DNA of 64,000 nucleotides from a virus (Duplodnaviria > Heunggongvirae > Uroviricota > Caudoviricetes). Below are positions 7,583 through 57,906 of this stretch, piece after piece; the first letter of the stretch is position 1; each line of letters opens with the position of its first letter. The notes below the pieces were generated by a model, which had not been told where the DNA came from, did no database searches, and saw only the letters and a list, made by a program, of their open reading frames with translations. Made by a program: the position numbers and the translations under genes. The stretch is taken from the IMG/VR virus record IMGVR_UViG_3300034102_002177; one strand, given 5' to 3'.

Positions 7583-7828
7583 ATGACATACAAAGAATTT
7601 TACATTTGGTTAGAAGGATTTATGACCAATAGAAGTTGGACAGTTATTCAACAATCCGACATTGAGGGAATTCAGAATAAAATGAAAGAAGTTAAAGAAG
7701 TGAACCAACCTGGTATGTTTGATCCTAACAGAATACCAATACCGGTTAACCCATTTCCTAAAACTGATGACCCATTTAAACCACCATTTGAAATATATTG
7801 CAGAGACAAAACACAATTAAATGATTAA
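7583..7828 (+). CDS. Hypothetical protein
   Basis: 81-aa ORF in the operon run. Confidence 0.3.
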   Translation: MTYKEFYIWLEGFMTNRSWTVIQQSDIEGIQNKMKEVKEVNQPGMFDPNRIPIPVNPFPKTDDPFKPPFEIYCRDKTQLND

Positions 7829-13267: not shown

Positions 13268-14068
13268 ATGAAGGACAAAAACTTAGGAATACCTATTAAC
13301 CAAGACGAAGTTTACCACTACCTTAAAGACATCAGAAAAATCAAAGTAATGACTCCCGACAGAGAGCGTGAGTTAGCCGTTAAGATGAAATCAAATGAGA
13401 TTTCAGACAAAGAGAGAAAACAAATTGAGGAAGAACTTCTTATAGGTAACTTAAGATTTGTCATTACTGTGGCGAAGCAGTACCAAAACCAAGGTTTAGA
13501 TTTACAAGATCTAATTGCTGAGGGTAATTATGGTTTGATGAAGGCAATCAAAAACTTTGATTGGGGAAAAGACCTTAGATTTATATCTTATGCGGTATGG
13601 TGGGTTAAACAATCAATTATTCAATCGTTAAATGATAATGCGAGAACAATAAGATTACCGGTGAATGTTGTTCAAGATCTTCATAGAGCAAAGAAAGAGT
13701 TGGAACAGACAGGTAAGAAGTTGGAAGACAAATTTTCCACATTACCATCAATCATTGATTTGGACATGAGAATTAATGATGAGGGAGATACTCTTATTGA
13801 TATGATTGCGAATCAAGATGCTGAGGCTCCTGATGCTTCTTTTCATACAAAAGATATTCTAAAAGAAAAAATGATGACCTTGTTGGATGTTTTAGATGAT
13901 CGTGAGAAGTCAATCATTGGGGATTACTTTGGGTTAACAGGAACTCCAAGAACTTTAGAGGACATTGGTAGTGATTTTGGTCTCACAAAAGAAAGAGTAC
14001 GTCAGATTAAAGAAAAGGCGTTAAGACGATTAAGAAACGATAGTTCGGAACTATTTGATTATTTGTAA
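13268..14068 (+). CDS. Sigma-70 family (RpoD/RpoS-like) RNA polymerase sigma factor
   Basis: Region 2: LIAEGNYGLMKAIKNFD. Region 3/4: TLEDIGSDFGLTKERVRQIKEKALRRLR. Confidence 0.8.
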   Translation: MKDKNLGIPINQDEVYHYLKDIRKIKVMTPDRERELAVKMKSNEISDKERKQIEEELLIGNLRFVITVAKQYQNQGLDLQDLIAEGNYGLMKAIKNFDWGKDLRFISYAVWWVKQSIIQSLNDNARTIRLPVNVVQDLHRAKKELEQTGKKLEDKFSTLPSIIDLDMRINDEGDTLIDMIANQDAEAPDASFHTKDILKEKMMTLLDVLDDREKSIIGDYFGLTGTPRTLEDIGSDFGLTKERVRQIKEKALRRLRNDSSELFDYL

Positions 14069-22664: not shown

Positions 22665-23594
22665 ATGGAAGATTATTATAGTGTTTTGGGGGTTAATGAA
22701 AGTGCGACCCAAGAGGAGATTAAAAGAGAATATAGAAAGTTAGTAAAAGAGAACCATCCTGATAAAGGAGGGGATGAAGAGAAGTTTAAAAAAATCTCAA
22801 CGGCTTATGATACAATAGGTGACGAAACTAAACGTAGGCAGTACGATCAACAAAAAAACAATCCATTTGGTAACATGGGTGGATTTGGTGGAGCATCTAT
22901 GGAAGAAATGATGAACAGTATGTTTGGTGGTAATCGTAGACAACAAACTAGAGTTCACGATACTGTTATTGATGTTCATATTGGTGTGATAGAATCTTAT
23001 ATGGGTGGAAAGAAAACAATGACATATAATAGAAAGGATAAATGTAATCCTTGTAATGGAACAGGTGGTGAAAAGAAAGTATGTCACACTTGTGGAGGAC
23101 AAGGATATACAGTTAAACAAATGGGTTCAGGTATGTTCATTCAAATTGTACAGGTTGCTTGTGGAACTTGTAATGGTGTTGGAAAAATAACAACCGCCGC
23201 TTGTTATGCTTGCGGTGGACAAGGGGCTAAAAACACAATAAACACAATAGAAGTACAATTACCACATGGTATTGATGATGGTCAATTTTTAAGGTTACAA
23301 GGACTTGGTGATTACAGAAATGGGGGTTACGGTAATTTAGTTGTGAGAATAAGAACGATAAATGAGGGAAATTTTGAAAAGGATGGACCTAATTTAATAT
23401 ATAATGCATTTTTAAATATTGGAGATTTTCAAAAAGGGGATTTTGAGGTACCTCATCCCGATGGATCAATAAGTATTAAGTTTCCTAATAATATAGATAC
23501 CTCAATGCCGTTAAGAGTTAAGGGTAAAGGGTTCAAATATCAACCACAAGGTGATTTATTAATTAATCAATATTTAAAATATAATAGAGGTTAG
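22665..23594 (+). CDS. dnaJ: DnaJ (Hsp40) type-I co-chaperone
   Basis: J-domain with HPD (ENHPDKGG), G/F-rich linker, four CxxCxGxG zinc repeats. Confidence 0.85.
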   Translation: MEDYYSVLGVNESATQEEIKREYRKLVKENHPDKGGDEEKFKKISTAYDTIGDETKRRQYDQQKNNPFGNMGGFGGASMEEMMNSMFGGNRRQQTRVHDTVIDVHIGVIESYMGGKKTMTYNRKDKCNPCNGTGGEKKVCHTCGGQGYTVKQMGSGMFIQIVQVACGTCNGVGKITTAACYACGGQGAKNTINTIEVQLPHGIDDGQFLRLQGLGDYRNGGYGNLVVRIRTINEGNFEKDGPNLIYNAFLNIGDFQKGDFEVPHPDGSISIKFPNNIDTSMPLRVKGKGFKYQPQGDLLINQYLKYNRG

Positions 23595-37291: not shown

Positions 37292-37627
37292 ATCTCCCTC
37301 GGTGATATCGTATTTGATACAATCACCACCATTGATCTCTAAGATCATATCACCAACACCTTCATAGTGGGAACATTTCGTATTGTCTTGTTCCCTACAT
37401 GGAGGACAGTCACTGTAAATTTTTTGAATTTTACCGTCTGATATGTAAATGATGTCTAAAGAAATCAAACAATCTTTCATCCAAAATGAATGATAACCTT
37501 CATTCATTACAAATAACATTCCATTAAATGTGTCATTAAATTTTTTACCTTTCATCCCTTCTTGAATGTCTTTATCAGTTATTGCTGATTTGACATTAAA
37601 AAGATTATTGTTTATTATTATTTCCAT
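37271..37627 (-). CDS. DUF192 (COG1430) family protein
   Basis: GMLFVMNEGYHSFWMKDCLISLDIIYISDGKI and LEINGG cores. Confidence 0.55.
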   Translation of the reverse strand: MEIIINNNLFNVKSAITDKDIQEGMKGKKFNDTFNGMLFVMNEGYHSFWMKDCLISLDIIYISDGKIQKIYSDCPPCREQDNTKCSHYEGVGDMILEINGGDCIKYDITEGDSILIKE

Positions 37628-37646
37628 ATTTATAAATATAGGAGGT

Positions 37647-38066
37647 ATGAAGAAAAATAAAAGATTTTCCGGTATATTAGTTAAATGTAATGATAAGGTA
37701 TTGTTGTGTAAGAGAAGTAATGATAATACTTTACCTGGCGTTTGGTCAATACCTGGTGGTGGGATAGAAGATGGGGAAAGTCCTGAAGATGCTGCTCGTA
37801 GAGAGTTTTATGAAGAAACAAATATCAAAGTTGATGGTAATTTAGATTTAGTTGGATTTATTGATCGTTATAATAAAGACGGGACTTATTTAAAAGGATT
37901 TATGTATGTGTACTCTTTAGAGGTGGATGAAGAGATTTATCCCGATTTAGAAAACGCAGTTGATGGTGGAGAACATACTGAATGTGGTTACTTTGGTATT
38001 AATAATTTACCATTGGATAAAAAAAATGATGAATTTTATAATATTATTGTAAATAATTTAAAATAA
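37647..38066 (+). CDS. NUDIX hydrolase
   Basis: Nudix box GGIEDGESPEDAARREFYEETNI. Start taken at the internal Met, because the track N-terminus overlaps the minus-strand gene. Confidence 0.8.
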   Translation: MKKNKRFSGILVKCNDKVLLCKRSNDNTLPGVWSIPGGGIEDGESPEDAARREFYEETNIKVDGNLDLVGFIDRYNKDGTYLKGFMYVYSLEVDEEIYPDLENAVDGGEHTECGYFGINNLPLDKKNDEFYNIIVNNLK

Positions 38067-40823: not shown

Positions 40824-40882
40824 TTTTCCTTGTTTAGTAAAACAAGGTGGTGGAGTCGGACAATTCGTTGTCGACCTTTAAA

Positions 40883-40909
40883 GGGAGGGGTTAACCTTCC
40901 CTTTTTTTA
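40883..40909. terminator. GGGAGGG-GTTAA-CCTTCCC hairpin plus TTTTTTT, between convergent genes
   Basis: 7-bp stem with T7. Confidence 0.65.
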
Positions 40910-41451
40910 TTTAGTTTTTCTAAATAAGATTTAACATTTGCTTTTGCTTTAAATAAATTTGATTTTGAGGTCCCATCACTAATTCCTAATTCATCGGCAA
41001 TTTCTTGGTGAGACATATTTTCAAAATAATACATATTAAAAATTCTTTTATATGATGGTGATAAACTTTCCATCGCATCTTTAATATCTGACATAGAAAA
41101 AATGGGTTCTTCATTTGGTATATCCTCAAGACCTAAATCTTCATAACCAAAATCAACATCTTTTCTTTTTGGAGATCTTTTTTCTTTTCTTAATTCATCA
41201 ATAATTGTATTTTTTATAATACGTTGAATCCAACCTTCAAGGCTACCTGAACCATCGTACATAGACATTTTTTGGTGAACTTTAATAAACCCTAATTGAC
41301 AAAAATCATTTGCCTTTTCTATATCACCATTTGCATATCTTAAACAAATTTGTTTAAATAGTTTTGGGTATAATCTTTTATATTCAAGATCAAAATTAAA
41401 ACCTTCATTTAATAGGTGTTGATATTGTAACTCAGTCAAGATAATTTTCAT
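40891..41451 (-). CDS. ECF-type (sigma-24 family) sigma factor, orphan with no adjacent anti-sigma
   Basis: Region 2 YPKLFKQICLRYANGDIEKANDFCQLGFIKV. Region 4 LSPSYKRIFNMYYFENMSHQEIADELGISDGTSKSNLFKAKANV. Confidence 0.7.
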   Translation of the reverse strand: MKIILTELQYQHLLNEGFNFDLEYKRLYPKLFKQICLRYANGDIEKANDFCQLGFIKVHQKMSMYDGSGSLEGWIQRIIKNTIIDELRKEKRSPKRKDVDFGYEDLGLEDIPNEEPIFSMSDIKDAMESLSPSYKRIFNMYYFENMSHQEIADELGISDGTSKSNLFKAKANVKSYLEKLNKKREG

Positions 41452-41492: not shown

Positions 41493-41900
41493 TTGATTAT
41501 GGAAAAAATATTATATATTGTTCGTGGAATTCCAGGATCCGGTAAATCCACATTTGCCAAATCTTTAGGTGGTACTCACTTTGAAACTGATATGTTTTTT
41601 ATGAAAGACGGTGAGTATAAATTTGATATGTTTAAACTTAAAGAGGCTCATAAATGGTGCCAGGATAGTGTTTATAGTGCAATGCTATTAAATCATACTG
41701 CGTTATTAAACAACGTAATTGTTGTTTCAAACACATTCACTCAAGAATGGGAAATGAAACCATATTTTGAAATGGCGGAATATTTTGAATATAAAATTTT
41801 TTCCATAATTGTGGAAAACAGGCACGGTGGTATTAACGAACATAATGTACCTGAAGAAACATTAACCTCAATGAGAAATCGGTTTGAAATAAATTTGTAG
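41493..41900 (+). CDS. P-loop polynucleotide kinase-like protein (T4 Pnk N-terminal domain-like)
   Basis: LYIVRGIPGSGKSTFAKSL Walker A. Resembles the T4 Pnk N-terminus ILTIGCPGSGKSTWAREF. Confidence 0.6.
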   Translation: MIMEKILYIVRGIPGSGKSTFAKSLGGTHFETDMFFMKDGEYKFDMFKLKEAHKWCQDSVYSAMLLNHTALLNNVIVVSNTFTQEWEMKPYFEMAEYFEYKIFSIIVENRHGGINEHNVPEETLTSMRNRFEINL

Positions 41901-41902
41901 TT

Positions 41903-42817
41903 ATGAGTAGATTAGATAAATTAAAAGAACAACATCCTGAATTAAACATTACAATTATTGATCTTATTGGTATGATAGATCCTACCGATACTTACAAGTA
42001 TTCGGAGTTTCTAATTAAAATTTTGAAAAATTGGTATGATAATATGGACATACGATATGGAATTGGGGTTGATCTTTTTGGTGATGAGAATGTAGAGACC
42101 TTAAATGAGTTTGAAAAACATTGTAAGGCAAAAAGAATTGAAAAAAACGATATTAGTCAACATACCACCTTTATAACTTTACAAAGTGAGGTTAATAAGG
42201 CTAAAGAAATTCTTAGATTGAAAGAGTTAGAAAAACAAACCAAAAAATTACTTGAACACGGAGAATGGTTGGTTATGATACCATTAAGTTATGAAGCGGC
42301 GAAGTTATATGGGGCAAATACTAAATGGTGTATAACTGAATTAAAATATTGGAATAACTATGTTGAGAATTATAAAATTATTTATGTGATCAATAGAAGT
42401 ACGGATGTTAAATACGCTATCTCTAGAGATAAAACGGATAATAAAGATTTAAAAGCGTGGTTGTCTGATGATAGTGAGACAAGTCCATTACTATTAAATA
42501 TACCTCAGGAAATATGGTCGGTGGTAATACCTGAATTACAAAAAGAAGAATCAATATGGGATTTACTACCAGATAATAATAAGATTATTCCACATAATTT
42601 GGGTTCGGATAACATCCTTGATAGAGTGAGAAATTTATTAATCAGCAATAGTACGGGCACAACAAATTTGACCGGAGGTTATATGGGTGACATAAATACT
42701 GATTTCCGCACTGACGCATATAAAACTTACAGTACATATGGTACATATGGAGATGATTTTGAAAAGTATTTAAGAGAATATATGTATACGTCAGATGAAT
42801 CAATTGATTTACCTTAA
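41903..42817 (+). CDS. KWCT-core paralog family protein, copy 1
   Basis: EWLVMIPLSYEAAKLYGANTKWCITE...YKIIYVINRS. Confidence 0.55.
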   Translation: MSRLDKLKEQHPELNITIIDLIGMIDPTDTYKYSEFLIKILKNWYDNMDIRYGIGVDLFGDENVETLNEFEKHCKAKRIEKNDISQHTTFITLQSEVNKAKEILRLKELEKQTKKLLEHGEWLVMIPLSYEAAKLYGANTKWCITELKYWNNYVENYKIIYVINRSTDVKYAISRDKTDNKDLKAWLSDDSETSPLLLNIPQEIWSVVIPELQKEESIWDLLPDNNKIIPHNLGSDNILDRVRNLLISNSTGTTNLTGGYMGDINTDFRTDAYKTYSTYGTYGDDFEKYLREYMYTSDESIDLP

Positions 42818-42828
42818 ATAAAAAGAAT

Positions 42829-43482
42829 ATGAAATTTGATAAAATATTAACAACAGGTAGAGTGTGGGTCACATCGGATCCACATTACAACCATAAAAAC
42901 ATTTGTAGAGGGGTAACGAATTGGAGAACCCAAGATGGTGAGATTCCTATTAATAGTACAAGAGATTTTCACACAATAGATCTAATGAATAATGTTTTAG
43001 TGGATAACATAAACTCAAAAGTTGGACAGAACGACACATTAATTATATTGGGTGATGTTGCGTTCGGTGGTTTTGAAAGTATTAGAATTTTCTTGGATCG
43101 TTTGGTGTGTAAGAATATTCATTTAGTTATGGGTAATCATGATCAACACATAAGAAACAATAGAGATAACATCAAAGATATGTTTTTATCTGTGAGCGAT
43201 TACCTCCAAGTTAATATTGACGGTGCCGATTTTGTTATGACACATTATCCATTTGAAAGTTGGAATGGTCTTAATAAAGGTGTTATACACCTTCACGGAC
43301 ACGTTCACTTACCTGCAAGTAAAAAGTGGGGTAAAGGTAAACGATTAGATGTTGGTGTTGATGGTAACAATCTATCACCATATAGTATAACTGAAATTGT
43401 ACATATGATGGATAAACGAGATATCGTTCCTGAAATGGAAGGTGATCACCATTTAGATGATTTAATTGGGGTTATTGGATAA
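42829..43482 (+). CDS. Calcineurin-like metallophosphoesterase (lambda-PPase or CthPnkp-phosphoesterase type)
   Basis: DPHYNH, ILGDVAFGG, GNHDQ, LHGHVH. Confidence 0.75.
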   Translation: MKFDKILTTGRVWVTSDPHYNHKNICRGVTNWRTQDGEIPINSTRDFHTIDLMNNVLVDNINSKVGQNDTLIILGDVAFGGFESIRIFLDRLVCKNIHLVMGNHDQHIRNNRDNIKDMFLSVSDYLQVNIDGADFVMTHYPFESWNGLNKGVIHLHGHVHLPASKKWGKGKRLDVGVDGNNLSPYSITEIVHMMDKRDIVPEMEGDHHLDDLIGVIG

Positions 43483-43509
43483 TTTAATATCCTCAATATA
43501 TTTATTAGT

Positions 43510-44748
43510 ATGAAAATTATTATAACTGAAAGTCAATGTAGAATTATTAATGAGGCGTTAGGTGTTCCTGACAATATTCTTGATGCCGCAGAAAAACTAT
43601 TTGAGATAGTATCTAAAGATATTCAAACCATTAATACCAAACAAGAAGAATATAATTTTGAGGGGGATTTAGATATTGAGTTAGGGTATAATAAAAAAAT
43701 AATTATTGATCATTATGAGTTATCGGTTGAGGTAAAAGAATTTGATGAATACAATGGTGAACCGGATGTTCTATCAATGGGTATGGGTCAAACATTTAGG
43801 TTTGATAGAAAAATTATGATGAAAAAAGTTAAACCATCAACGAATGCCGCTTTAGTAATAACATTTGCGGTTTCACCATATTGGGAACCTAACCAGTTAT
43901 ATGAAACTTTAATAAAAAACAAGAGTGAACATTTATCTTCACTAGCGCATGAACTAAAACATAAGTACGATAAACAAGCGAAACAAACTGATTTAATCGG
44001 TAGAGATGTAAAATATAGTGCAACACAAAAAATCTCTACATTTGGAATACCTGTGATAGATAAACAATTTTTTAGGTATATGTACTATACTTCTATTGCT
44101 GAAAATTTAGTAAGACCAACTGAAATTGCATCTGGACTTAAAAGTGAAAATATAACAAAATCTCAATTCAGGGAATTTTTACAAAACAATAGAGTTTATA
44201 AAGAATTAATTGAAATTAAAAATTTTACATACGAAAAACTTATTGAAGGTTTGTATGAAAGGATGGACAGAGTGGATGCATTACTTAACCATATTGGAGA
44301 AGATACGGATGAAATGACGGATCAAGAAAAAGTTGAAAGAGTACTAGAACTTGTATTTATAAATCTTGCAAATATAAAAATTGAAATATTTGATGAAATG
44401 GTTAGTACTGAGAACGATATGTTAAAAAGTTTTTTTAGACAAATGGTGGGTAATGTACCTTCATTTATGGAAGATGATGAAGAAAAAAACGTGGATAAAG
44501 TAAGGAGAAAAATTATAAATAGTATTGTTAAATATGAAAAAGACCCCTTAAGATTCTTCCAAGACGAGTGCGAAAAATTTAATTACATTACAACAAAAAT
44601 GTTGAAAAAAATTGGTAAACTTTATGCTATGGCAAAAGATGATGAACCGGTTAATGAATCTATCATTAATTGGGAACTTCATCAGAAGTTAATGGAAAAA
44701 AAGTATGGAAAAAGACCAATACACAAAAAAATTTCTTACTTAAAGTAA
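43510..44748 (+). CDS. Hypothetical protein
   Basis: 412-aa ORF. Confidence 0.5.
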   Translation: MKIIITESQCRIINEALGVPDNILDAAEKLFEIVSKDIQTINTKQEEYNFEGDLDIELGYNKKIIIDHYELSVEVKEFDEYNGEPDVLSMGMGQTFRFDRKIMMKKVKPSTNAALVITFAVSPYWEPNQLYETLIKNKSEHLSSLAHELKHKYDKQAKQTDLIGRDVKYSATQKISTFGIPVIDKQFFRYMYYTSIAENLVRPTEIASGLKSENITKSQFREFLQNNRVYKELIEIKNFTYEKLIEGLYERMDRVDALLNHIGEDTDEMTDQEKVERVLELVFINLANIKIEIFDEMVSTENDMLKSFFRQMVGNVPSFMEDDEEKNVDKVRRKIINSIVKYEKDPLRFFQDECEKFNYITTKMLKKIGKLYAMAKDDEPVNESIINWELHQKLMEKKYGKRPIHKKISYLK

Positions 44749-44768
44749 ATTAATCAAAATTTTTTTAT

Positions 44769-44776
44769 TATCTTTG
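44769..44776 (+). promoter_or_regulatory. Bacteroidetes-type -7 box TAtcTTTG, 7 nt upstream of a short ORF
   Basis: Exact motif. Confidence 0.5.
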
Positions 44777-44783
44777 TTCTTAT

Positions 44784-44963
44784 ATGAAAAAACCATGTAA
44801 GGAATGTCCTCATTTTATCAAAAATCATCACAATGATATGATTGTTAGTTTTGCCGAAAGAACCGGTAAAAAACATAATTGTCATATGACGGAAGGAAAA
44901 AAAGATTTGTGGAATGTAACGGATAAGAAACTTGAATGTTATGGTAGTAGAAAGGACAGTTAA
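44784..44963 (+). CDS. Small Cys/His-rich (zinc-binding-like) protein, 59 aa. Below the track cutoff
   Basis: MKKPCKECPHFIKNHHND...NCHMTEGKK...ECYG. Promoter immediately upstream. Replaces the antisense track ORF 44754..44978. Confidence 0.4.
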   Translation: MKKPCKECPHFIKNHHNDMIVSFAERTGKKHNCHMTEGKKDLWNVTDKKLECYGSRKDS

Positions 44964-45222
44964 GAAGAAATATATCATTGTGTTTTTAAGTGCTTCGGTT
45001 CTTGAAATTGGGAGTACTTTTTACATTAGTGTGGTCTCAGATAAGGATTATCTTGGTATGATGTTTTTTGCATTTATTGGGCCATTTCTATCATTACCAT
45101 TTGTTGGTTTTATGGTTGAATCAAAAACTTGGAAAGAAAGATTAAAACTTGCTTTATGGTCAGGTTTTGGTTATTTGATTGGTTCATTAATAACTATTAT
45201 ATTTTTTGAAATATTAAAATGA
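44932..45222 (+). CDS. Small membrane protein
   Basis: Three hydrophobic helices. Start uncertain. Confidence 0.35.
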   Translation: MNVMVVERTVKKKYIIVFLSASVLEIGSTFYISVVSDKDYLGMMFFAFIGPFLSLPFVGFMVESKTWKERLKLALWSGFGYLIGSLITIIFFEILK

Positions 45223-45581
45223 AAAAAAAAGAAACAAAATTTGGAACCTATATAGATATGGAAACAAAAAGTAACTCAGAAATAACCGGAGATAAAATCA
45301 CGGTATTCGTAGAAAGATTAAAAAAGATTGGTATTGAAGTTAAACTTGTGGGTAACTATCCTTGGGTTTATATTGATGAAATCTGTGGTATTAAAGTAAA
45401 AGAGAAGTTCGCGGGTAATCACGGGTTTACTATAATCTTTCTTCCTGTAAGAACTGACACACCGCCAAGCGATTTTACCGATATTGGGGAGACATTCAAA
45501 TTGATAAGAAAATACAGTAGACAAGCTCTATTGGTAAAACTTATGAAAGATGATGAAGAAAGTGGAATGTATGAAAATTAA
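45219..45581 (+). CDS. Hypothetical protein
   Basis: 120-aa ORF. Confidence 0.4.
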   Translation: MKKKETKFGTYIDMETKSNSEITGDKITVFVERLKKIGIEVKLVGNYPWVYIDEICGIKVKEKFAGNHGFTIIFLPVRTDTPPSDFTDIGETFKLIRKYSRQALLVKLMKDDEESGMYEN

Positions 45582-45592
45582 AAAAAATAAAA

Positions 45593-46036
45593 ATGGAAAA
45601 ACAAAAATATAGAATTTATTTGGATGATGTAAGAACACCGGTTAGTCCTAACAATGCATTGGTGGATGGTATTCCTGAGTGGACTGTGGTTCGTTCTTAC
45701 GACGAGTTCGTACAAAAGATAAACTCAATTGGTTTGGAGAACATTGAGTTAATCTCATTAGATCACGACTTGGGTGACAGTGCTATGTCAGAATGGTTAT
45801 ATGGTGTTACTAAAAACTATTCAATTAACTACGATAACATTACCGAAAAAACCGGTATGGATTGTACTAAATGGTTAGTGAATCAATGGTTAGATGGTAA
45901 ACCTGTTGTTGAAGTTGTAGTTCATTCCGCAAACGCTGTTGGTAGTGCAAATATGATGGGTTACATTAACAATTACCGACACCTCAATCGTTTACCACAA
46001 AATTGTGTGAGAGTACAAATAGAACATACAGTATAA
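45593..46036 (+). CDS. Hypothetical protein
   Basis: 147-aa ORF. Confidence 0.45.
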   Translation: MEKQKYRIYLDDVRTPVSPNNALVDGIPEWTVVRSYDEFVQKINSIGLENIELISLDHDLGDSAMSEWLYGVTKNYSINYDNITEKTGMDCTKWLVNQWLDGKPVVEVVVHSANAVGSANMMGYINNYRHLNRLPQNCVRVQIEHTV

Positions 46037-46046
46037 AAATAAAGTT

Positions 46047-46307
46047 ATGGAATTAGAAAAATTTGAACAAGCAAAAAAAGTAAAAGAAAACCTTGATAGG
46101 TTGGAAAGACAGAAGTATAAATTGGAATCTGCGCTTAAATCTTGTGGTTTGAGTGTCACGATTGGATTTACACACTCTGGAGGATTCAACAGAAAAGGTG
46201 AGGTCAGTTTCTATAACAAAGAGATTATTAAAGAAATGATCTCTAAAGAACTTGATAGAGTGAATGAAGAAATTGATTTAGTAAAAAAAGAATTTGAAAA
46301 CGTATAA
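46047..46307 (+). CDS. Small coiled-coil protein
   Basis: 86-aa ORF. Confidence 0.4.
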   Translation: MELEKFEQAKKVKENLDRLERQKYKLESALKSCGLSVTIGFTHSGGFNRKGEVSFYNKEIIKEMISKELDRVNEEIDLVKKEFENV

Positions 46308-46310
46308 AAA

Positions 46311-47444
46311 ATGGAAAATTTAAATAGTGTATGTTATGTTGGTGTGATCGGAGAGATATTACCAATAGATGGAGCGGATAACATTGAACTTGCATTGGTT
46401 GGTGGTTGGCAAGCCATTACTAAGAAAGGTGAATATAGTGTTGGTGATAAGGTTGTTGTTGCAACTACCGATGCGGTAATCCCTGTTGAATTATCTGATT
46501 TAATGGGCGTAACTAATTACCTAAGAAAAGGTCAAAGAGTTCGCACCGTTAAACTTCGTAAAGTTTACTCTGAGTGTTTGTTAATACCATTCAAATACTT
46601 GGCACCAAGGTCTTTGGAGAACAATGTAAATGAAGGTCACGACATGATGGAACTGTTAGGTATCACTAAATATGAACCACCAGTTAAGATGGTTGAGATG
46701 AGTGTTGGTGGAAGAAAATTCAAATACCACCAAAACCCGAACTTCCACATTTACTACAAATTCCCAAATATGAAGAACGTACCTGATATGTTCAATGAGG
46801 AGGATGAAGTATGTATCACTCGTAAGTTACACGGAACCAATGCTCGTTACGGTATTGTGAGAAAGAAAAAACTTTCAATCCTTGATAAGATTAAAGGGTG
46901 GTTTGGTAATCAATGGGTTGGTTACGAATACGTTTATGGATCCCACAACGTTGAGAAGGGATCTGACTCTCAAGGTTTTTATGCAACTGATGTGTGGAAA
47001 ACAGTTGCGGAAAAATATGATATCCGTAAAAAACTTTGGGATCACGTTAAAGATACTTTTGATCCTAATGATGTTGGTTCAGGATTTATCATCTATGGTG
47101 AAATCTATGGACACGGAATACAAAAGAATTACGACTATGGTTTAACTGAAATCCGTTTTGCGGGATTTGACGTTGAGGTTGATGGATCTTATGTTGATAA
47201 CATTTACCAATCAACTCATTTTAAATGTTTAGGTTTAGAAGAAGTTGAAACTTTATATTCAGGTCTTTGGTCAAAAGAAGAACAAGATAAATATGTGTTT
47301 AATAACAACATTCAAGGAACTAAAGTTCCTCACGAAGGTATTGTTGTAAAATGTTTATCTGGTAATCGTCATAAGATTGGAAAAGTAATCAACCCTGATT
47401 ATTTAATTTACGGTGAAAAAAATAACGTAGGTGACTCCCATTAA
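46311..47444 (+). CDS. RNA ligase, Rnl5-type (DraRnl/NgrRnl-like)
   Basis: Motif I as KLHGTN (KxHGxN variant characteristic of DraRnl), motif IV EGIVVK, motif V HKIGKV. Confidence 0.65.
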   Translation: MENLNSVCYVGVIGEILPIDGADNIELALVGGWQAITKKGEYSVGDKVVVATTDAVIPVELSDLMGVTNYLRKGQRVRTVKLRKVYSECLLIPFKYLAPRSLENNVNEGHDMMELLGITKYEPPVKMVEMSVGGRKFKYHQNPNFHIYYKFPNMKNVPDMFNEEDEVCITRKLHGTNARYGIVRKKKLSILDKIKGWFGNQWVGYEYVYGSHNVEKGSDSQGFYATDVWKTVAEKYDIRKKLWDHVKDTFDPNDVGSGFIIYGEIYGHGIQKNYDYGLTEIRFAGFDVEVDGSYVDNIYQSTHFKCLGLEEVETLYSGLWSKEEQDKYVFNNNIQGTKVPHEGIVVKCLSGNRHKIGKVINPDYLIYGEKNNVGDSH

Positions 47445-47488
47445 CTTGATGGGATCACTTTTTTTATTTATATTTAAAAAAATAACAA

Positions 47489-47762: not shown

Positions 47763-48863
47763 ATGGGAATAAAACATTTAATTCAGGAAAATCCTAATAT
47801 GGATATAAATTTGGTTCGTTTAATATCTAAACTTGATCCAAGCAAAACAAATAAACTAACACCATTTATGGTAAAAGTTTTTAAAAAAAGAATGGTTGAT
47901 TTTGAAAAAGAAATCACTCAAGAGGAAGGTATTTATGGATTAAGATATGAATATGTTAATAGTAAGATGAGTGATGCAAGTGGTTTTGAAAAATTAATAT
48001 TAACTTGGGTTATAGATCAATTTAGAGCGGAAAATATTGAAATCTTAAGAGAATTTAATGAGGTTTTGGATAAAGGTTTAGTGGATCAAAATGACATATC
48101 TAAATACGAAAATTTTGAAGAGATTACAAATCAATTGTCGGTTGCTAGAACAAAAGATTTATTGAAGAAATCTAGAAAAGAAATCTCTGTTGTCTATGAA
48201 GATGATGAAATTATGATGCTTAAACCATTATCTTTTGAGGCATCTTTGAAATATGGTGCTGGAACAAAATGGTGTACAGCAATGAAAAATGAACCTGAAT
48301 ATTTTTATAGATACTCTAAAAATGGTATTTTAATCTATCTTATTAATAAAGAAACCGGTAGAAAATTTGGGTGTCATTCGGAAAGATATAATGATAATAG
48401 AGTTCAAATCTTTAATGAGATTGATCAGGTTATTGATTCTTTCCATATGGGTTTACCATATGAAAAATTAACTATCTTAATGGATTTAATGGATTCAGAA
48501 AAATATGGTGTTAATTCAGAGTTATTTAGTGAAGAGGAAAAAAGTAAGTATGGGTTAAGAGTGAATAAATATTCGGTAGATGAGGTGATGGATATGCCAA
48601 CTGAAGAAATGCCAGTGAATGAAGAATTACCAAGATTGATGCCAAGATTGAACAGACGAATCCCAATTACGGATCAAGAAATGAGAATAATGGAAGACCC
48701 AATGGTAGAAGAGCAAGGACCGATAGAAATTGAATACAATATGGCTGTACCTGATAGAATGTTAATGAGAGAGATTCAAAAAGAAATTGATTCCATTATG
48801 GTTCTTGATCGTGCGGGAGCTTTCGCTCATCTTGAAAATGAAGAGGGTGACACATTACCATGA
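47763..48863 (+). CDS. KWCT-core paralog family protein, copy 2
   Basis: EIMMLKPLSFEASLKYGAGTKWCTAMK...GILIYLINKE. Confidence 0.55.
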   Translation: MGIKHLIQENPNMDINLVRLISKLDPSKTNKLTPFMVKVFKKRMVDFEKEITQEEGIYGLRYEYVNSKMSDASGFEKLILTWVIDQFRAENIEILREFNEVLDKGLVDQNDISKYENFEEITNQLSVARTKDLLKKSRKEISVVYEDDEIMMLKPLSFEASLKYGAGTKWCTAMKNEPEYFYRYSKNGILIYLINKETGRKFGCHSERYNDNRVQIFNEIDQVIDSFHMGLPYEKLTILMDLMDSEKYGVNSELFSEEEKSKYGLRVNKYSVDEVMDMPTEEMPVNEELPRLMPRLNRRIPITDQEMRIMEDPMVEEQGPIEIEYNMAVPDRMLMREIQKEIDSIMVLDRAGAFAHLENEEGDTLP

Positions 48864-49507: not shown

Positions 49508-51364
49508 ATGGGAAAAATAATTGGAATTGACTTAGGTACAACAAACTCTTGTGTGGCCGTTATGGAAGGGAATGAACCGGTAGTTATTACAAATAACGAA
49601 GGTAAACGAACAACGCCATCTGTAATCGGATTCATTAAAGATGGTGAAAGAAAGATTGGGGATCCGGCTAAACGACAAGCGGTAACCAATCCTGAAAAAA
49701 CCGTACATTCAATTAAACGATTTATGGGAACAAGTTTTACTGAATCTAAAAATGAGGTAAAGAAAGTTCCTTATAAAGTTGTAAAAGGAGATGGTGGATC
49801 ACCAAGAGTGGATATTGATAAACGACAGTATTCTCCGCAGGAACTTTCCGCAATGGTTTTACAAAAAATGAAACAAACTGCTGAGGATTATTTGGGTGAG
49901 ACGGTTACTGAGGCGGTTATTACGGTACCAGCGTATTTTAATGATGCTCAACGACAGGCAACCAAAGAAGCGGGTGAGATTGCGGGTTTGGAAGTAAAAC
50001 GTATCATTAATGAGCCAACAGCGGCGGCATTAGCATATGGTTTAGATAAAATGTCTAAAGATATGGTAGTGGTTGTGTTTGACTGTGGTGGTGGTACACA
50101 CGATGTTTCTATTCTTGAATTAGGTGATGGTGTATTTGAAGTATTGTCTACTGATGGTGATACTCACTTAGGTGGTGATGACTTTGATCAGGTTATTATT
50201 GAATGGTTAGCAAATGAATTCAAAGATGAGAATGGAATTGATGTGACCAAGGATCCGATGGCGTTACAACGTTTACGAGAAGCGGCAGAAAAGGCAAAAG
50301 TTGAATTATCTTCAACCTCATCAACGGAAATTAATTTACCGTATTTGATGCCGGTAGATGGGATGCCAAAACACTTGGTTAGAACTTTATCAAAATCTAA
50401 ATTTGAACAACTGGCAGATTCATTAATCAAACGAACTATTGAACCTTGTAAGACAGCGTTGAAAAATGCTAAGATGGATGTGTCTGATGTTGATGAAATT
50501 ATCTTGGTTGGAGGTACAACAAGAATTCCGGCAATTCAAGAAGCGGTTAAACAATTCTTTGGTAAGGAACCATCTAAAGGTGTTAATCCTGATGAGGTAG
50601 TTGCTTTAGGTGCGGCGATCCAAGGTGGTGTACTTGCTGGTGATGTTAAAGATGTCTTATTATTAGATGTGACTCCATTATCTTTAGGTATTGAAACTAT
50701 GGGTGGAGTTATGACTAAATTGATTGATGCTAACACCACGATCCCAACTAAAAAATCTCAGGTGTTCTCAACGGCAGTAGATAATCAACCAACAGTTGAG
50801 ATCCACGTACTTCAGGGAGAACGAGCAATGGCAAAAGATAATAAAACCATTGGTAAGTTCAATTTAGATGGTGTTCCACCAGCGATGAGAGGTGTTCCAC
50901 AAATTGAGGTTACGTTTGATATTGATGCGAATGGTATTATCAATGTTTCTGCAATGGATAAAGGTACAAACAAACAACAAACAATTCGTATCGAAGCGTC
51001 CTCAGGTTTATCAAAAGAAGAGATTGAGAAAATGAAACAAGAAGCTGAGTTAAATGCCGAACAGGATAAAAAACTCAGAGAAGATGCTGAAGTTCTAAAC
51101 ACGGCTGATGGTACAATCTTCCAAACTGAGAAGTCAATCAAAGATTTGGAAGATAAATTAACTGAAGAACAAAAGAGTGAACTTGATGGATTACTTGGAA
51201 CGTTAAAAGAATCTTACGCAAAAAAAGACATTGAGAAGATTAATCAAGATATTGAAAATCTTAATAGTCAGTTCCACCATATTAGTCAATCATTGTACGA
51301 ACAAACTACAACTGAAGAAGGTAATGATGCTCCGTCTGACGTTGAATTTGAAGAAGTACTTTAA
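49508..51364 (+). CDS. dnaK: Hsp70 chaperone DnaK
   Basis: [47 protein letters not shown], full substrate-binding and lid domains. Variant [10 protein letters not shown] in place of canonical DLGGGTFDVS. Confidence 0.9.
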
Positions 51365-52414: not shown

Positions 52415-52999
52415 ATGAAAGTATTATTTTTAGATCATGATGGTGTAATTTGTCTCTCCAATAATTGGGGTGGACGAACAAAGAAATGGGCGAAATATCG
52501 TTCTGAAAATCCTGAATCCTCCTCAAATCTAAAAGAGGGTCCGGTGTCTGTACGATTTGATGACTTTGATCAAAAGGCAATTAAGATCCTTAATGAGATT
52601 GTTGAAGAGACAGGATGTGAAATTGTGGTAAGTTCAGATTGGAAGCTACACGCAACTCTTGAAGAACTTGGTGAATATTATGAATTACATGGGATAAGTA
52701 AAAAACCAATTGCGTTAACACCAAATATACAAGATTGTAAAGTTCATGGTAATTTATTTATATGGTCACCAAGATGGGATTTAGAACAAACACGAACTAT
52801 TGAAATCAGACAATATCTTCAGGATCATCCTGAGGTTACACATTGGGTTTCTGTTGATGATTTAAATATGGGTAAAATTGGTGAGGATTGGAAAGATGTA
52901 TGGGCGATAGATAATTTTGTTTTAACGCCAAGATCAAATGAGGGAATAAAACAGAGCGGAGTTAAAGAAAAAATATTAAAGTTTTTGAAAAATGACTAA
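52415..52999 (+). CDS. HAD-superfamily phosphatase-like protein (T4 Pnk 3'-phosphatase-domain-like)
   Basis: N-terminal VLFLDHDGVI = hhhhDxDGV motif I, comparable to T4 Pnk VIFDVDGTL. Confidence 0.45.
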   Translation: MKVLFLDHDGVICLSNNWGGRTKKWAKYRSENPESSSNLKEGPVSVRFDDFDQKAIKILNEIVEETGCEIVVSSDWKLHATLEELGEYYELHGISKKPIALTPNIQDCKVHGNLFIWSPRWDLEQTRTIEIRQYLQDHPEVTHWVSVDDLNMGKIGEDWKDVWAIDNFVLTPRSNEGIKQSGVKEKILKFLKND

Positions 53000-55217: not shown

Positions 55218-55456
55218 AAAAGTTAATATTAATTACTTTAGTTGGGATAGTATTGTTTTCTTGTAAGAGAAAAGAATATAAATATGAAATTCACGGGAAA
55301 GTTTATATCCCAACCTCAGGGTTGAACCCAATGCATGATGCAATATGGTATACGGATACAATTAGTTTTGATGGTGACACATTATATTATTTTAATAGTG
55401 ATGGGTCTGAAGTAAGAATTTATCCACCGTATATTTTAAAAGATAATTCAAAATGA
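55214..55456 (+). CDS. Small lipoprotein (lipobox VLFSC)
   Basis: MKKLILITLVGIVLFSCKRKE. Confidence 0.45.
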   Translation: MKKLILITLVGIVLFSCKRKEYKYEIHGKVYIPTSGLNPMHDAIWYTDTISFDGDTLYYFNSDGSEVRIYPPYILKDNSK

Positions 55457-55866
55457 AGATAGGAATAACTTGCTCCTGTTTTGATTTATTTCATGCGGGA
55501 CACGTAAAGATGTTGGAGGAAGCTAAAACTCAATGTGATTATTTAATTATTGCGTTACAAACAGATCCAACAATTGATAGACCAGAAAAAAACAAACCAA
55601 TACAATCGGTCGTTGAAAGATACATTCAACTTAAAGGTTGTAAATTCGTTGATGAGATCATACCATACGAAACTGAAAAAGATTTAGAAGATCTTTTTAA
55701 CACATTAAAATTAGATGTTAGAATTATTGGTGAGGACTATAAGGGTAAAGATTTCACCGCAAAACAAATATGTTTAGATAGGAGTATTGTGTTATACTAC
55801 AATGAAAGAAAACACAATTTCTCAAGTACAGAACTTAAAAAAAGAATAAACAATGGCAAAAATTGA
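55453..55866 (+). CDS. Cytidylyl/adenylyltransferase of the HxGH nucleotidyltransferase superfamily (HldE C-domain/TagD-like)
   Basis: GITCSCFDLFHAGHVKMLEEAK. Confidence 0.7.
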   Translation: MKIGITCSCFDLFHAGHVKMLEEAKTQCDYLIIALQTDPTIDRPEKNKPIQSVVERYIQLKGCKFVDEIIPYETEKDLEDLFNTLKLDVRIIGEDYKGKDFTAKQICLDRSIVLYYNERKHNFSSTELKKRINNGKN

Positions 55867-56746
55867 TGAACTAAGAAAAAAATACCCAAAAGTTAATAAA
55901 TCTACGGGTGATAAATTTTTTGAGGGAGATAAAACACCAACCAAAAAATATCTTGAATTTATGTTTAAGATGTGGTCAACAAGAAATGAACGTCCAGTTG
56001 AGGGAGTATCGGCACCTCAGTATGTTAAAATAATTAATGAGTTTGATCAGTTGTTACCATATATTCAAAATAAAGACATTTATAGTAGTCAATATAAATC
56101 TATGATGCAGTTATTTAGGATAGTTGAAAATGCTAAAGCATTAAAAGAGGAAAATGAATTTATTCGTGAAGATCATATTGATGTTTTAATTGAAAATGAT
56201 GATTATCTTTTAATTAGTCCTTTAACTTTAAAGGGATCCCTAAAATATGGTGCGGATACTAAATGGTGTACCGCCAGTAAATCAAGTTCTTATCAGTTTA
56301 CAAGTTACACTAAAGACGGTTATTTGTTTTATTTGATCTCAAAAAAAGAAAGAGCTAAAAATTATAATAAGGTTGCATTTTATTCACGTAGTAAAAATGA
56401 ACACTTGACCACATATTATACAATTTATAATCAAATTGATACTGAAGTTAATGAGCAAAAAGTTATTTTGAATGATTGGACTATGTTTGAACTATTTGAA
56501 ATAATGGCTAAAATAAGAGTTTATACTTATGAAAAGTATATAATTGAAAAGGCTAAAACTGATGTTGAAAAAACTGTTAATGTTCTGAAATCAGTTAATT
56601 TAGATGAATTTTTACGACAAGTTAATTTGTTGGAGAAATACGGAGAAAGTGGGAAAATAGAAGGAAAAGATGAATTGGAAAAAGTAATTCAAACTTTAAG
56701 TAAAAAAACAGAAGATTTATTTGGTAAATCTAAAATTAATGTGTAG
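55853..56746 (+). CDS. KWCT-core paralog family protein, copy 3
   Basis: DYLLISPLTLKGSLKYGADTKWCTASK...YLFYLISKK. Confidence 0.55.
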   Translation: MAKIDELRKKYPKVNKSTGDKFFEGDKTPTKKYLEFMFKMWSTRNERPVEGVSAPQYVKIINEFDQLLPYIQNKDIYSSQYKSMMQLFRIVENAKALKEENEFIREDHIDVLIENDDYLLISPLTLKGSLKYGADTKWCTASKSSSYQFTSYTKDGYLFYLISKKERAKNYNKVAFYSRSKNEHLTTYYTIYNQIDTEVNEQKVILNDWTMFELFEIMAKIRVYTYEKYIIEKAKTDVEKTVNVLKSVNLDEFLRQVNLLEKYGESGKIEGKDELEKVIQTLSKKTEDLFGKSKINV

Positions 56747-56789: not shown

Positions 56790-57011
56790 ATGTTTAAAAC
56801 AGAAAAGTTAGGACTATGGGGAGTCATAATACTAACAACGATCTATCTCTATCTAATCAATTTATATTTTGAATATATCCTTAGTAGAGAGGTGGCAAGT
56901 GAAATCCAAATTGTTGTAAGTTTAGTAGCCTTGGCTTACACAATTTTTCAAGTAAAATTAATAGTAAAAAAGGCAGTTAGTTTATTTAAAAAAGAAGAAA
57001 AAAATGATTAG
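56790..57011 (+). CDS. Small membrane protein
   Basis: Two TM helices. Confidence 0.4.
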   Translation: MFKTEKLGLWGVIILTTIYLYLINLYFEYILSREVASEIQIVVSLVALAYTIFQVKLIVKKAVSLFKKEEKND

Positions 57012-57906
57012 TATTGTATTATTTATTGTGTTTATTGCTATTGGGGCAATGATGTTTTTATCAGGTCGTGCAAATGACGATGACCGTAGAACTATAATGG
57101 GAATTGCCGTTGCGGTGATTGGAATTTTGGTTACAATATTCCAACCATATTCAATTGAAAAAATTGATTCGGGTCACAAAGGATTAAAAATTAATTTGAT
57201 TGGTAATCAACGAGGAGTGTCAAGTTATCAATATAAGACAGGTTGGGTTTTTTATAATAGTTGGACAGAACAAGTTTTAGAGTTCCCAACATACCAACAA
57301 CATATTGAATACGAAGATCAAGGTGTGATCCTAAAAGGTGGGTTCTCTGCGACTATTAAACCAACGTTCAACTATTCATTACGTGAAGATGCGATTGGAG
57401 ATATGTTTGTTAACTTAAGAAAAGATATCAAAGAGATTGAACAAGGTTGGTTGAAAAATGCCATTATCGGAGCGGTTAATGATGTTGCTAATACATGGGA
57501 AGTAGATAGTATCTTTAATCACCGACAAGCATTTGAGGCGGCTATTGTAACCGAATGTAATGTACGTTTATCTAAGTGGTTTAATGTGTCTCAATTACGA
57601 ACTAATATTATCCCACCTGATGCATTACAAGAATCTATTATAGCAAAAACAAAGGCAATCCAACAAGCGGAAGCATCAGAGCAACAAGCGATCGCTGCGA
57701 TCTCTGAAGGTAGACGTAAGGTGGCTGTGGCACGAGCTGACTCGGCAGAAACTATCATCAACGCACAAGCGGCGGCATTGGCAATCAAAATTAAACAAAA
57801 CCAATTGTCTCCATTGTATATTGAATATGTTAAGTGGAATGCTTGGGATGGGAAACTTCCTACAACAGTGGCTGGTGGATCAGGAACTTTATTAAACATT
57901 AAGTAA
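57004..57906 (+). CDS. SPFH/Band-7 (HflK/C, prohibitin-like) membrane protein
   Basis: N-terminal TM, then a C-terminal AIQQAEASEQQAIAAISEGRRKVAVARADSAE Ala/Glu-rich coiled coil typical of SPFH proteins. Confidence 0.5.
   Translation: MISIVLFIVFIAIGAMMFLSGRANDDDRRTIMGIAVAVIGILVTIFQPYSIEKIDSGHKGLKINLIGNQRGVSSYQYKTGWVFYNSWTEQVLEFPTYQQHIEYEDQGVILKGGFSATIKPTFNYSLREDAIGDMFVNLRKDIKEIEQGWLKNAIIGAVNDVANTWEVDSIFNHRQAFEAAIVTECNVRLSKWFNVSQLRTNIIPPDALQESIIAKTKAIQQAEASEQQAIAAISEGRRKVAVARADSAETIINAQAAALAIKIKQNQLSPLYIEYVKWNAWDGKLPTTVAGGSGTLLNIK

Follow-up and report, generated by a model that had tools for sequence, protein, structure and literature searches.

A probable non-fused RNA healing-and-sealing gene set with an Rnl5-family ligase in a lineage of large phages

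Do the kinase, phosphoesterase and RNA ligase genes of a large phage make up one pathway for mending broken RNA? Host defences that cleave tRNA and further RNAs are known to be countered by phage RNA repair. In phage T4, Pnk (PseT) and Rnl1 undo the damage that the anticodon nuclease PrrC does to tRNA-Lys; to our knowledge, they are the only phage RNA-repair pair worked out experimentally. The question was raised by a 64,000-nucleotide (nt) stretch of Caudoviricetes DNA (IMG/VR record IMGVR_UViG_3300034102_002177; the window is this whole stretch). An earlier annotation (the sequence-only reading) had assigned to it a T4-Pnk-like kinase, a calcineurin-like phosphoesterase, an Rnl5-type ligase and a HAD phosphatase, and had proposed that they reverse anticodon-nuclease damage. 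The positions, + strand, domain calls and catalytic motifs of these four open reading frames (ORFs) were all reproduced by Pfam, PHROG and alignments. The component list was not complete, as a cREC gene had been overlooked. The five genes are as follows.

41499-41900, + strand: stand-alone Pnk-fold P-loop kinase, 133 amino acids (aa) (AAA_33, PHROG 2071/505, structure model, gene adjacency)
42829-43482, + strand: calcineurin-type metallophosphoesterase, 217 aa (Metallophos, PHROG 547, invariant motifs)
45593-46036, + strand: cREC (cyclic-phosphate processing receiver-like) protein, 147 aa (PF20274, PHROG 1479)
46311-47444, + strand: Rnl5-family ATP-dependent RNA ligase, 377 aa, with an N-terminal OB domain followed by a nucleotidyltransferase domain (Pfam, NCBIfam, 5cot profile alignment)
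52415-52999, + strand: SAK-type HAD phosphatase, 194 aa (PF18143, HAD_SAK_2)

The region is probably a multi-gene, non-fused healing-and-sealing pathway for broken RNA. This reading is carried by the domain identities, the conserved and intact motifs, the Pnk fold of the kinase, and a linkage that extends to unrelated phages and to the replacement of one part by a non-homologous one.

Relatives were collected by scanning viral contigs with the ligase, which gave 80 loci of 71-91% identity, some on contigs of 250-304 kb. Gene presence upstream of the ligase was counted in the 54 loci with at least 8 kb of upstream sequence, and presence of the HAD gene in the 41 loci with at least 9 kb downstream. 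Nine kinase loci from cultured phages of at least seven genera were sampled in addition: Pseudomonas Amme-3, Pakpunavirus B55, Escherichia rV5, Antha, Klebsiella KpS8, Acinetobacter P1, Vibrio Chester, Vibrio 1.170.O and Aeromonas AhP_Mru1.

Judged by architecture and motifs, the ligase is a member of the Rnl5 family. Pfam placed the PHA02142 OB domain (PF21189) at residues 13-93 and the RNA_ligase domain (PF09414) at residues 165-359. There was no C-terminal appendage, and the order of OB domain and nucleotidyltransferase domain is that of Rnl5. The family profile aligned with the Naegleria Rnl5 enzyme NgrRnl (5cot) at E=1e-53, residues 4-371 matching 4-338 of 340. The K-x-H-G-x-N motif named in the sequence-only reading was found as K172-L-H-G-T-N, with K172 aligned to the K-L-D-G of NgrRnl. 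The nucleophile of NgrRnl is Lys170 of 170-KLDG (PMC4408790), and K172 is the predicted adenylylation site. K172, G175, S211, G263-E264, E342-G343 and K358 were invariant in phage homologs only 26-31% identical. The match to NCBIfam TIGR02306 (RNA_lig_DRB0094; E=4e-35, 121.4 bits) was under the equivalog cutoff of 151.15, and by that model the protein is not an equivalog. It shares the domain order, the motif I lysine and motifs III, IV and V with NgrRnl and with DraRnl (Deinococcus DR_B0094). It differs from both in being phage-encoded and set among end-healing genes, and in scoring below the DRB0094 equivalog cutoff. Rnl5 homologs in bacterial viruses had already been pointed out in the Rnl5 papers, where Mn-dependent sealing of 3'-OH/5'-phosphate nicks is described for NgrRnl and DraRnl only and Rnl5 physiology is termed 'uncharted' (PMC4408790, PMC5397189).

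The kinase ORF was listed from a TTG codon at 41493, but its start is probably the ATG at 41499, because the relatives begin with M-E-K. The evidence for a polynucleotide kinase from sequence alone was marginal. Pfam AAA_33 matched at E=4e-8, PHROG 2071 at E=1.6e-41 and, more weakly, PHROG 505 'polynucleotide kinase' at E=9e-6. Among solved structures, the family profile found the kinase domain of Clostridium thermocellum Pnkp (CthPnkp; E=0.0045), the tRNA(Sec) kinase PSTK (0.014) and T4 Pnk (0.03); adenylate kinase was matched at the P-loop only. The fold was decided by the structure model. In a Foldseek search of the PDB with the AlphaFold2 (AF2) model (mean predicted local distance difference test, pLDDT, 84), the top 12 matches were the CthPnkp kinase and T4 Pnk, with template modelling (TM) scores of 0.60-0.75 and E from 5e-6 to 2e-4 (T4 Pnk: TM 0.68-0.73). 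Adenylate and shikimate kinases reached TM 0.37-0.54. As modelled, the fold groups with polynucleotide kinases and not with adenylate or shikimate kinases, in agreement with the earlier claim of likeness to T4 Pnk, and the product is predicted to be a 5'-OH polynucleotide kinase. Neither of the two grounds for refutation named in the sequence-only reading, a missing motif I lysine in the ligase and a kinase nearer to adenylate or shikimate kinases, was borne out.

Invariant kinase residues were the P-loop G12-x-x-G15-S-G-K18-S (G-x-x-G-x-G-K-[ST]), E31-x-D33, N80-T81, E108-N-R-H111 and H117. Conserved blocks, including V-S-N-T-F-T-Q-x-W-E and E-N-R-H-G, were kept even in cultured-phage homologs of 46-53% identity. 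D33 lined up with S-S-D of the CthPnkp kinase in the profile alignment; the equivalent Asp is presumably the general base. One arginine was invariant in E-N-R110-H and another was found at R130, and these are candidates only for the lid arginines of T4. The kinase has no fused 3'-phosphatase domain, unlike T4 Pnk and Pnkp, and is coupled to its partners at the gene level only. A PHROG 'RNA ligase' family of 737 residues matched the kinase at its N-terminus, and fused kinase-ligase versions appear to exist, judging from this match. A wide homolog search with the kinase profile found no distant members or fusions, its matches being saturated by close relatives. The family is present in 619 cultured-phage records, in which annotation is inconsistent: the record of Escherichia phage rV5_ev147 (LR597647.1; L135, 4001-4411) names the small kinase 'RNA ligase 1 and tail attachment protein', and others say ATPase, phosphatase or polynucleotide kinase.

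The phosphoesterase at 42829 is predicted to be a 2',3'-cyclic phosphodiesterase and/or 2'/3'-phosphatase acting on the 3' end. It matched Pfam Metallophos at E=8e-8 (33.4 bits, cutoff 21.5) and PHROG 547 at E=3e-46. Its motifs D17-x-H19, G75-D76, G102-N-H-D105, H139 and G157-H158-x-H160 were invariant in 27 sequences, and the family is present in 1037 cultured-phage records. The sequence-only reading had compared it with the layout of Clostridium Pnkp, the enzyme of the Pnkp-Hen1 system, in which kinase, metallophosphoesterase and ligase-like domains make up one protein. This stands only for the gene order of kinase and metallophosphoesterase, which mirrors the domain order of Pnkp, and does not extend to the phosphoesterase family. 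For the kinase, CthPnkp is the closest structural match. Single-sequence and profile searches of solved structures gave no match to the Pnkp or lambda phosphatase and returned only 6unc and 1xm7, the best solved relative being Aquifex aq_1665 (1xm7). The window genes are also separate, their sealing enzyme is a classic Rnl5 and not a Pnkp ligase domain, and the cluster yielded no methyltransferase of the Hen1 type.

The overlooked cREC gene lies one small gene upstream of the ligase. It matched PF20274 at E=5e-21 (75.6 bits, cutoff 27), with D11-D12, S-L-D57-H-D59 and H111-S-x-N114 conserved, and was present in 31 of the 54 loci. Of those window ORFs that were searched with Pfam, none was a histidine kinase; the context of this receiver-like protein is the RNA ligase. 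It is predicted to open 2',3'-cyclic phosphate ends.

The HAD protein matched PF18143 at E=4.7e-21 (76.1 bits, cutoff 27.5) and is predicted to remove a terminal linear phosphate. Its invariant motifs are D7-x-D9-G-V, S73-S74-D75 and D148-D149. The DxDGV motif and the HAD fold family of the earlier annotation were thus confirmed, while the type is SAK and not T4-Pnk/PNKP. Single-sequence and profile searches of solved structures found no relative of it. The gene was present in 37 of the 41 loci, at a variable distance of 2.5-9.5 kb from the ligase. Lineage synteny, the origin of the Pfam family and the literature speak for its membership of the pathway, which is not established.

In the lineage, the gene order was kinase, phosphoesterase and 412-aa protein, followed by the 59-aa and 120-aa proteins, cREC with its coiled-coil partner where present, the ligase and, further downstream, the HAD gene. 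The distance from the kinase stop to the phosphoesterase start was -4, -1 or +3 nt in 34 of 58 related loci. Where loci were rearranged, genes moved in pairs: kinase and phosphoesterase shifted together in one locus (L059), and cREC and its coiled-coil partner in two (L043, L050).

The position next to the kinase can be taken by another enzyme. In one locus (L068, 6647-8625), a T4-Pnk-type phosphatase gene lies directly upstream of the kinase, with 3 nt between them, and the Rnl5 ligase follows the kinase after 2 nt. This phosphatase matched HAD_PNKP (E=3e-31), Pnkp1 (6e-16) and T4 Pnk (2e-8). The same arrangement of phosphatase, kinase and Rnl5 ligase was found in L093 and relatives, the loci of this sub-lineage besides L068 being L093-L097, L099, L101 and L102. 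Overall, a HAD_PNKP phosphatase was next to the kinase in nine loci, before it in some and after it in others; four of the nine continue with the ligase, and one has cREC in between. In L097, cREC is between the kinase and the ligase. Because a HAD_PNKP phosphatase adjoins it in nine loci and in both orders, the kinase behaves like the kinase part of a Pnk split into two genes, and in the lineage of the window the phosphoesterase fills the slot of the phosphatase. For PHROG 2071, a phage "ATPase" of wide occurrence, this kinase part is the best reading.

The linkage was also seen in cultured phages. Kinase and phosphoesterase families were at most 2.5 kb apart in seven of the nine sampled loci (hidden Markov model, HMM, matches: kinase E 1e-32 to 1e-48, phosphoesterase 1e-16 to 1e-28). 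An annotated Rnl1-type ligase was adjacent to the kinase or one gene away, again in seven of nine (six phages with both families and one with the kinase only). A functional module would be expected to show such a pattern, with its healing enzymes kept and the ligase family exchanged. Clusters were often found beside genes for nicotinamide adenine dinucleotide (NAD) salvage, Macro or Sir2 genes. The sequence-only reading had spoken of a complete end-healing and sealing set. A non-fused set is supported by the linkage and by its recurrence with a different ligase, and the part given to the HAD protein is not established.

The enzymatic activities, the order of the steps, the division of labour among the phosphoesterases and the identity of the damaged RNA are what we infer from these findings. 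A ribonuclease of the host or of a competitor would leave one end with a 5'-OH and the other with a 2',3'-cyclic phosphate (or 3'-phosphate). The 5'-OH would be phosphorylated by the small Pnk-fold kinase. The cyclic phosphate would be opened by cREC and/or the metallophosphoesterase, and the leftover phosphate removed by the metallophosphoesterase and/or the SAK-type HAD protein. The Rnl5 ligase would then adenylylate itself at K172, transfer the AMP to the 5'-phosphate and join this end to the 3'-OH.

Several points weigh against this reading. Shared gene order among relatives of 71-91% identity is by itself uninformative. Three or four candidate phosphoesterases look redundant. For the kinase family, as for cREC and the SAK-type HAD protein, activities are predicted only. 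In the kinase, the CthPnkp strand V-V-D-A-T-N reads V-V-S-N-T-F, with Ser79-Asn80-Thr81 opposite D-A-T. The Asp of V-V-D-A-T-N is, we assume, a metal-binding residue; because Ser79-Asn80 replaces it, the catalytic competence of the kinase is not guaranteed. The HAD gene is 5 kb downstream of the ligase, past DnaK and unrelated genes. Its linkage was not found outside the lineage: none was near the sampled kinase-ligase clusters of cultured phages, and the phage collection gave one match. No tRNA gene was found in the window, nor in 45 relatives up to 10 kb from the ligase. Hydrolysis of 2',3'-cyclic phosphates by cREC is a published prediction, and cREC is experimentally uncharacterised (PMC7824862, PMC9503650). 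The characterised Rnl5 enzymes (NgrRnl, DraRnl) seal nicks in duplexes of which the 3'-OH strand is RNA; on single strands of RNA they are 'comparatively feeble', and a knockout of the Deinococcus enzyme led to sensitivity to ionising radiation and delayed genome reassembly (PMC4408790, PMC5397189).

A further point comes from Flavobacterium phage immuto (MW353176.1; L086, 6944-9003). Its phosphoesterase (47% identity) lies directly after four tRNA genes, and its cREC (72%) is 1 kb downstream. No homolog of the ligase, the kinase or the SAK-type HAD protein was found in its 160-kb genome. Hence, the phosphoesterase and cREC can act without this ligase. Perhaps they work with a host ligase or on small molecules.

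Small molecules are central to one alternative, in which the genes do not form one pathway. The metallophosphoesterase, cREC and HAD proteins, with a NUDIX protein (37566-38066), would mainly destroy small-molecule immune signals or NAD-derived products (e.g. cyclic nucleotides, cyclic ADP-ribose or ADP-ribose 1''-2'' cyclic phosphate), and only the kinase and the ligase would act on nucleic acid. In agreement with this, cREC has been placed in NAD/ADP-ribose networks, often fused to Nudix domains (PMC9503650). The NUDIX gene and a cytidylyltransferase-like gene (55453-55866; a HIGH nucleotidyltransferase, possibly of the nicotinamide mononucleotide (NMN) adenylyltransferase type) flank the region, the clusters of cultured phages abut the NAD-salvage, Macro and Sir2 genes already named, and immuto has the phosphoesterase and cREC with no ligase. 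However, the kinase and phosphoesterase ORFs overlap in many relatives, and cREC stands between kinase and ligase in L097. Moreover, a bona fide Pnk-type 3'-phosphatase takes the same slot beside the kinase elsewhere, which argues that the phosphoesterase does the 3'-end job. As an account of the locus, we consider this alternative unlikely. As an observation of its own, the NUDIX and cytidylyltransferase-like genes of the window, with the neighbours seen in cultured phages, hint at a link to NAD/ADP-ribose metabolism.

It is rather more doubtful that the module mends nicks in DNA or in RNA:DNA hybrids (e.g. RNA-primed or RNA-patched phage DNA) and not in RNA. The kinase and the phosphatases would clean the ends, and Rnl5 would link the 3'-OH of RNA to the 5'-phosphate of DNA in the course of replication, recombination or repair. 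Rnl5 enzymes do require RNA on the 3'-OH side only and join it to DNA, deletion of the Deinococcus enzyme has the effects on radiation sensitivity and genome reassembly given above, and the authors leave open whether DNA, RNA or both are the repair target of Rnl5 and Rnl2 (PMC4408790, PMC5397189). The kinase-ligase cluster of cultured phages is also often near an ATP-dependent DNA ligase and nucleotide-metabolism genes. Against this, the partner ligase in cultured phages is annotated as the T4 Rnl1 type, and Rnl1 is a tRNA-repair ligase (PMC4408790). cREC and SAK-type HAD proteins are known from contexts of RNA ends and of ADP-ribose. Members of the ligase, phosphoesterase and cREC families adjoin tRNA genes in several phages; in the case of the ligase family, these are tRNA arrays in actinophages and a Brevundimonas phage.

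That unrelated accessory genes merely share a variable region of a large phage genome is very improbable, and coincidence is largely refuted for the kinase, phosphoesterase, cREC and ligase: the region does mix unrelated functions (DnaK, sigma factors, sugar enzymes, methylases), the order in close relatives reflects common descent and the set is interrupted by the paralog at 41903, the 412-aa protein and DnaK, but in many phage genera that are not related, RNA ligases of another family again have the kinase and phosphoesterase families around them, and another sub-lineage has a tight phosphatase-kinase-ligase operon.

Within the favoured reading of an RNA healing-and-sealing pathway, the substrate has to be considered. 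Rnl1 and Rnl4 are described as sealers of stem-loop breaks, as opposed to Rnl5 (PMC4408790, PMC5397189). Because the characterised Rnl5 enzymes prefer duplex-held nicks, a break inside folded RNA (in helices of tRNA or rRNA, or in a tRNA held by its fold) would be a more likely substrate than a free single-stranded end. Such a break, or an RNA-DNA junction, would fit the known Rnl5 biochemistry at least as well as an anticodon-loop cut. The sequence-only reading had named reversal of PrrC, RloC and VapC-like nucleases as the function. Reversal of anticodon-nuclease defence is possible but unproven; the anticodon loop is a doubtful target in view of the feeble action of Rnl5 on single strands (PMC4408790, PMC5397189). 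We raise tentatively, as a doubtful extension, that Rnl5 may do the sealing in a phage pathway dedicated to ribonuclease breaks inside structured RNA, a target class unlike the open anticodon-loop cuts of Rnl1, and that the 412-aa, 59-aa and 120-aa proteins may be new specificity or scaffold factors in it.

Compared with T4 Pnk and Rnl1, the locus likewise combines a phage-encoded 5'-kinase, removal of 3'-phosphate and an ATP-dependent RNA ligase, as far as activities are predicted. The kinase has the fold of T4 Pnk, and L068 pairs it with a homolog of the C-terminal domain of T4 Pnk. In contrast to T4, the window kinase is a separate 133-aa protein with no fused phosphatase, and in place of the HAD domain of Pnk, a metallophosphoesterase, cREC and a SAK-type HAD protein serve as the predicted 3'-end enzymes. 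The ligase is an Rnl5 (N-terminal OB domain, from a family that seals duplex nicks), whereas Rnl1 seals stem-loops.

A nearer likeness is the neighbourhood of rV5/Mydo-type phages, described with an Rnl1-like ligase, cREC, a nucleotide kinase, MazG, a sirtuin and, in some cases, a calcineurin-like phosphoesterase (PMC9503650 sec. 3.7.3). The sampled phages of this type have the same families of kinase (HMM E 1e-42 to 1e-45) and phosphoesterase (~1e-21 to 1e-22), clustered beside a ligase or phosphoesterase; rV5 also gave a weak cREC match. The window differs in its Rnl5 ligase, in the SAK-type HAD gene nearby and in three interleaved lineage-specific genes, and no sirtuin or MazG was found in its cluster.

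Phage kits of an ATP-dependent RNA ligase with a polynucleotide kinase, cREC, SAK- or Pnk-type HAD proteins and occasionally calcineurin-like phosphoesterases have been described, typically as stand-alone genes (PMC7824862, PMC9503650). The set was correctly called split rather than fused, yet this is normal for phage kits (PMC7824862). Surveys also predict the roles given here to cREC, SAK-type HAD proteins, calcineurin-like enzymes and nucleotide kinases beside phage RNA ligases (PMC7824862 sec. 3.4.9; PMC9503650 sec. 3.7.3). The main phage ligases in one survey are Rnl1 and Rnl2, besides a few uncommon forms that have diverged (PMC7824862). This kind of counter-defence kit is therefore already described by comparative genomics, and the Rnl5-centred kit is a less-described member. 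The locus and its very abundant relatives give a testable context for the Rnl5 ligase family and supply candidate activities for the small kinase, cREC and the SAK-type HAD protein. If only the ordinary reading holds, the value lies in annotation, with PHROG 2071 "ATPase" as a Pnk-type kinase.

Four small or unassigned genes are interleaved with the kit, and a possible terminator lies at the end of the ligase gene.

43510-44748, + strand: 412-aa protein with invariant H147-E148-x-x-H151 (spacing to the phosphoesterase)
44784-44963, + strand: Cys/His-rich protein, 59 aa (conservation)
45219-45581, + strand: conserved 120-aa protein, PHROG 38683 (E=6e-20; usually just upstream of the ligase or cREC)
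46047-46307, + strand: coiled-coil protein, 86 aa, that accompanies cREC (gene spacing, co-relocation)
47436-47464, + strand: weak terminator-like hairpin and T-run over the ligase stop codon (consensus scan only)

The 412-aa gene starts 26 nt after the phosphoesterase in 41 of 48 loci, and its product is a candidate accessory component, tightly coupled to the phosphoesterase. It had no family match; its structure model was of moderate quality and gave no fold match. The 59-aa gene was present in all 54 loci. Its Cys and His residues were invariant (C-x-x-C-P-H ... C-H ... C), which would suit a small zinc binder, and no Pfam family matched. The coiled-coil gene abuts or overlaps cREC and stops 2-3 nt ahead of the ligase in 32 of 40 loci. 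The hairpin at 47436-47464 is a possible end of the transcription unit.

The 120-aa gene was present in 50 of the 54 loci, at 10-14 nt from the ligase in loci with no cREC. It was rejected as a universal ligase partner. In Vibrio phage 10AMN, no kit genes lie less than 9 kb from its homolog, and the linkage to the ligase is thus lineage-specific; the gene is also absent beside the ligase in distant phages.

An unassigned family, PHROG 17056, has three paralogs in the window (41903-42817, 47763-48863 and 55853-56746; pairwise E=3e-24), which have P-L-S-x-E-A-x-x-Y-G-A-x-T-K-W-C in common. The first copy sits between the kinase and phosphoesterase genes, which normally overlap. The family may be mobile or of fast turnover, because its presence and position vary among relatives.

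The neighbourhood of L068 contains a different metallophosphoesterase, an SPFH/Band-7 gene and a gene like that for phosphoribosyl pyrophosphate (PRPP) synthetase. The SPFH/Band-7 gene is at 57004-57906 in the window, ~10 kb downstream of the ligase, and at 10377-11324 in L068, ~2 kb downstream. SPFH modules have reportedly been proposed as RNA-repair scaffolds.

The window has a G+C content of ~31%, and nearly all of its genes are on the + strand. No tRNA or transfer-messenger RNA (tmRNA) genes and no Rfam families were found in it. A near-identity DNA search of the phage collection gave no match, so the window has no close DNA relative among these cultured phages, while protein searches of metagenomes found thousands of close homologs. 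The lineage is one of very abundant large phages (up to ~300 kb), the closest cultured relative of which infects Flavobacterium. As Flavobacterium phage immuto is the nearest cultured relative for several window genes, the host is probably in the Bacteroidota. Pfam matches of the larger ORFs included a primase, two sigma factors, DnaK, DnaJ, DNA methylases, sugar-modifying enzymes and an SbcCD-like pair. Together with the NUDIX, cytidylyltransferase-like and SPFH/Band-7 proteins, this is typical large-phage content.

Matches to sigma-70-type promoters in the window numbered 64, compared with 67 in shuffled sequence; with no excess, no promoter is claimed. Two factors of the sigma-70 family are encoded at 13268-14068 (+) and 40891-41451 (-). 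The latter is like the extracytoplasmic function (ECF) type, is among the few genes on the minus strand and diverges from the kinase over a 47-bp spacer. A strong bidirectional terminator-like hairpin was found at 40879-40909.

The phosphoesterase at 42829 was rejected as an Mre11/SbcD-type nuclease, for which a second, unrelated metallophosphoesterase (7821-8600) is the better fit. The latter is just upstream of an SbcC/Rad50-like ATPase (9799-12174), with a 209-aa ORF and a small ORF between them. The two probably form an SbcCD/Mre11-Rad50-type DNA nuclease, outside the RNA kit. The window also encodes full-length chaperones, DnaK (Hsp70) at 49508-51364 and DnaJ at 22665-23594. DnaK was found at this position in only 6 of 41 relatives.

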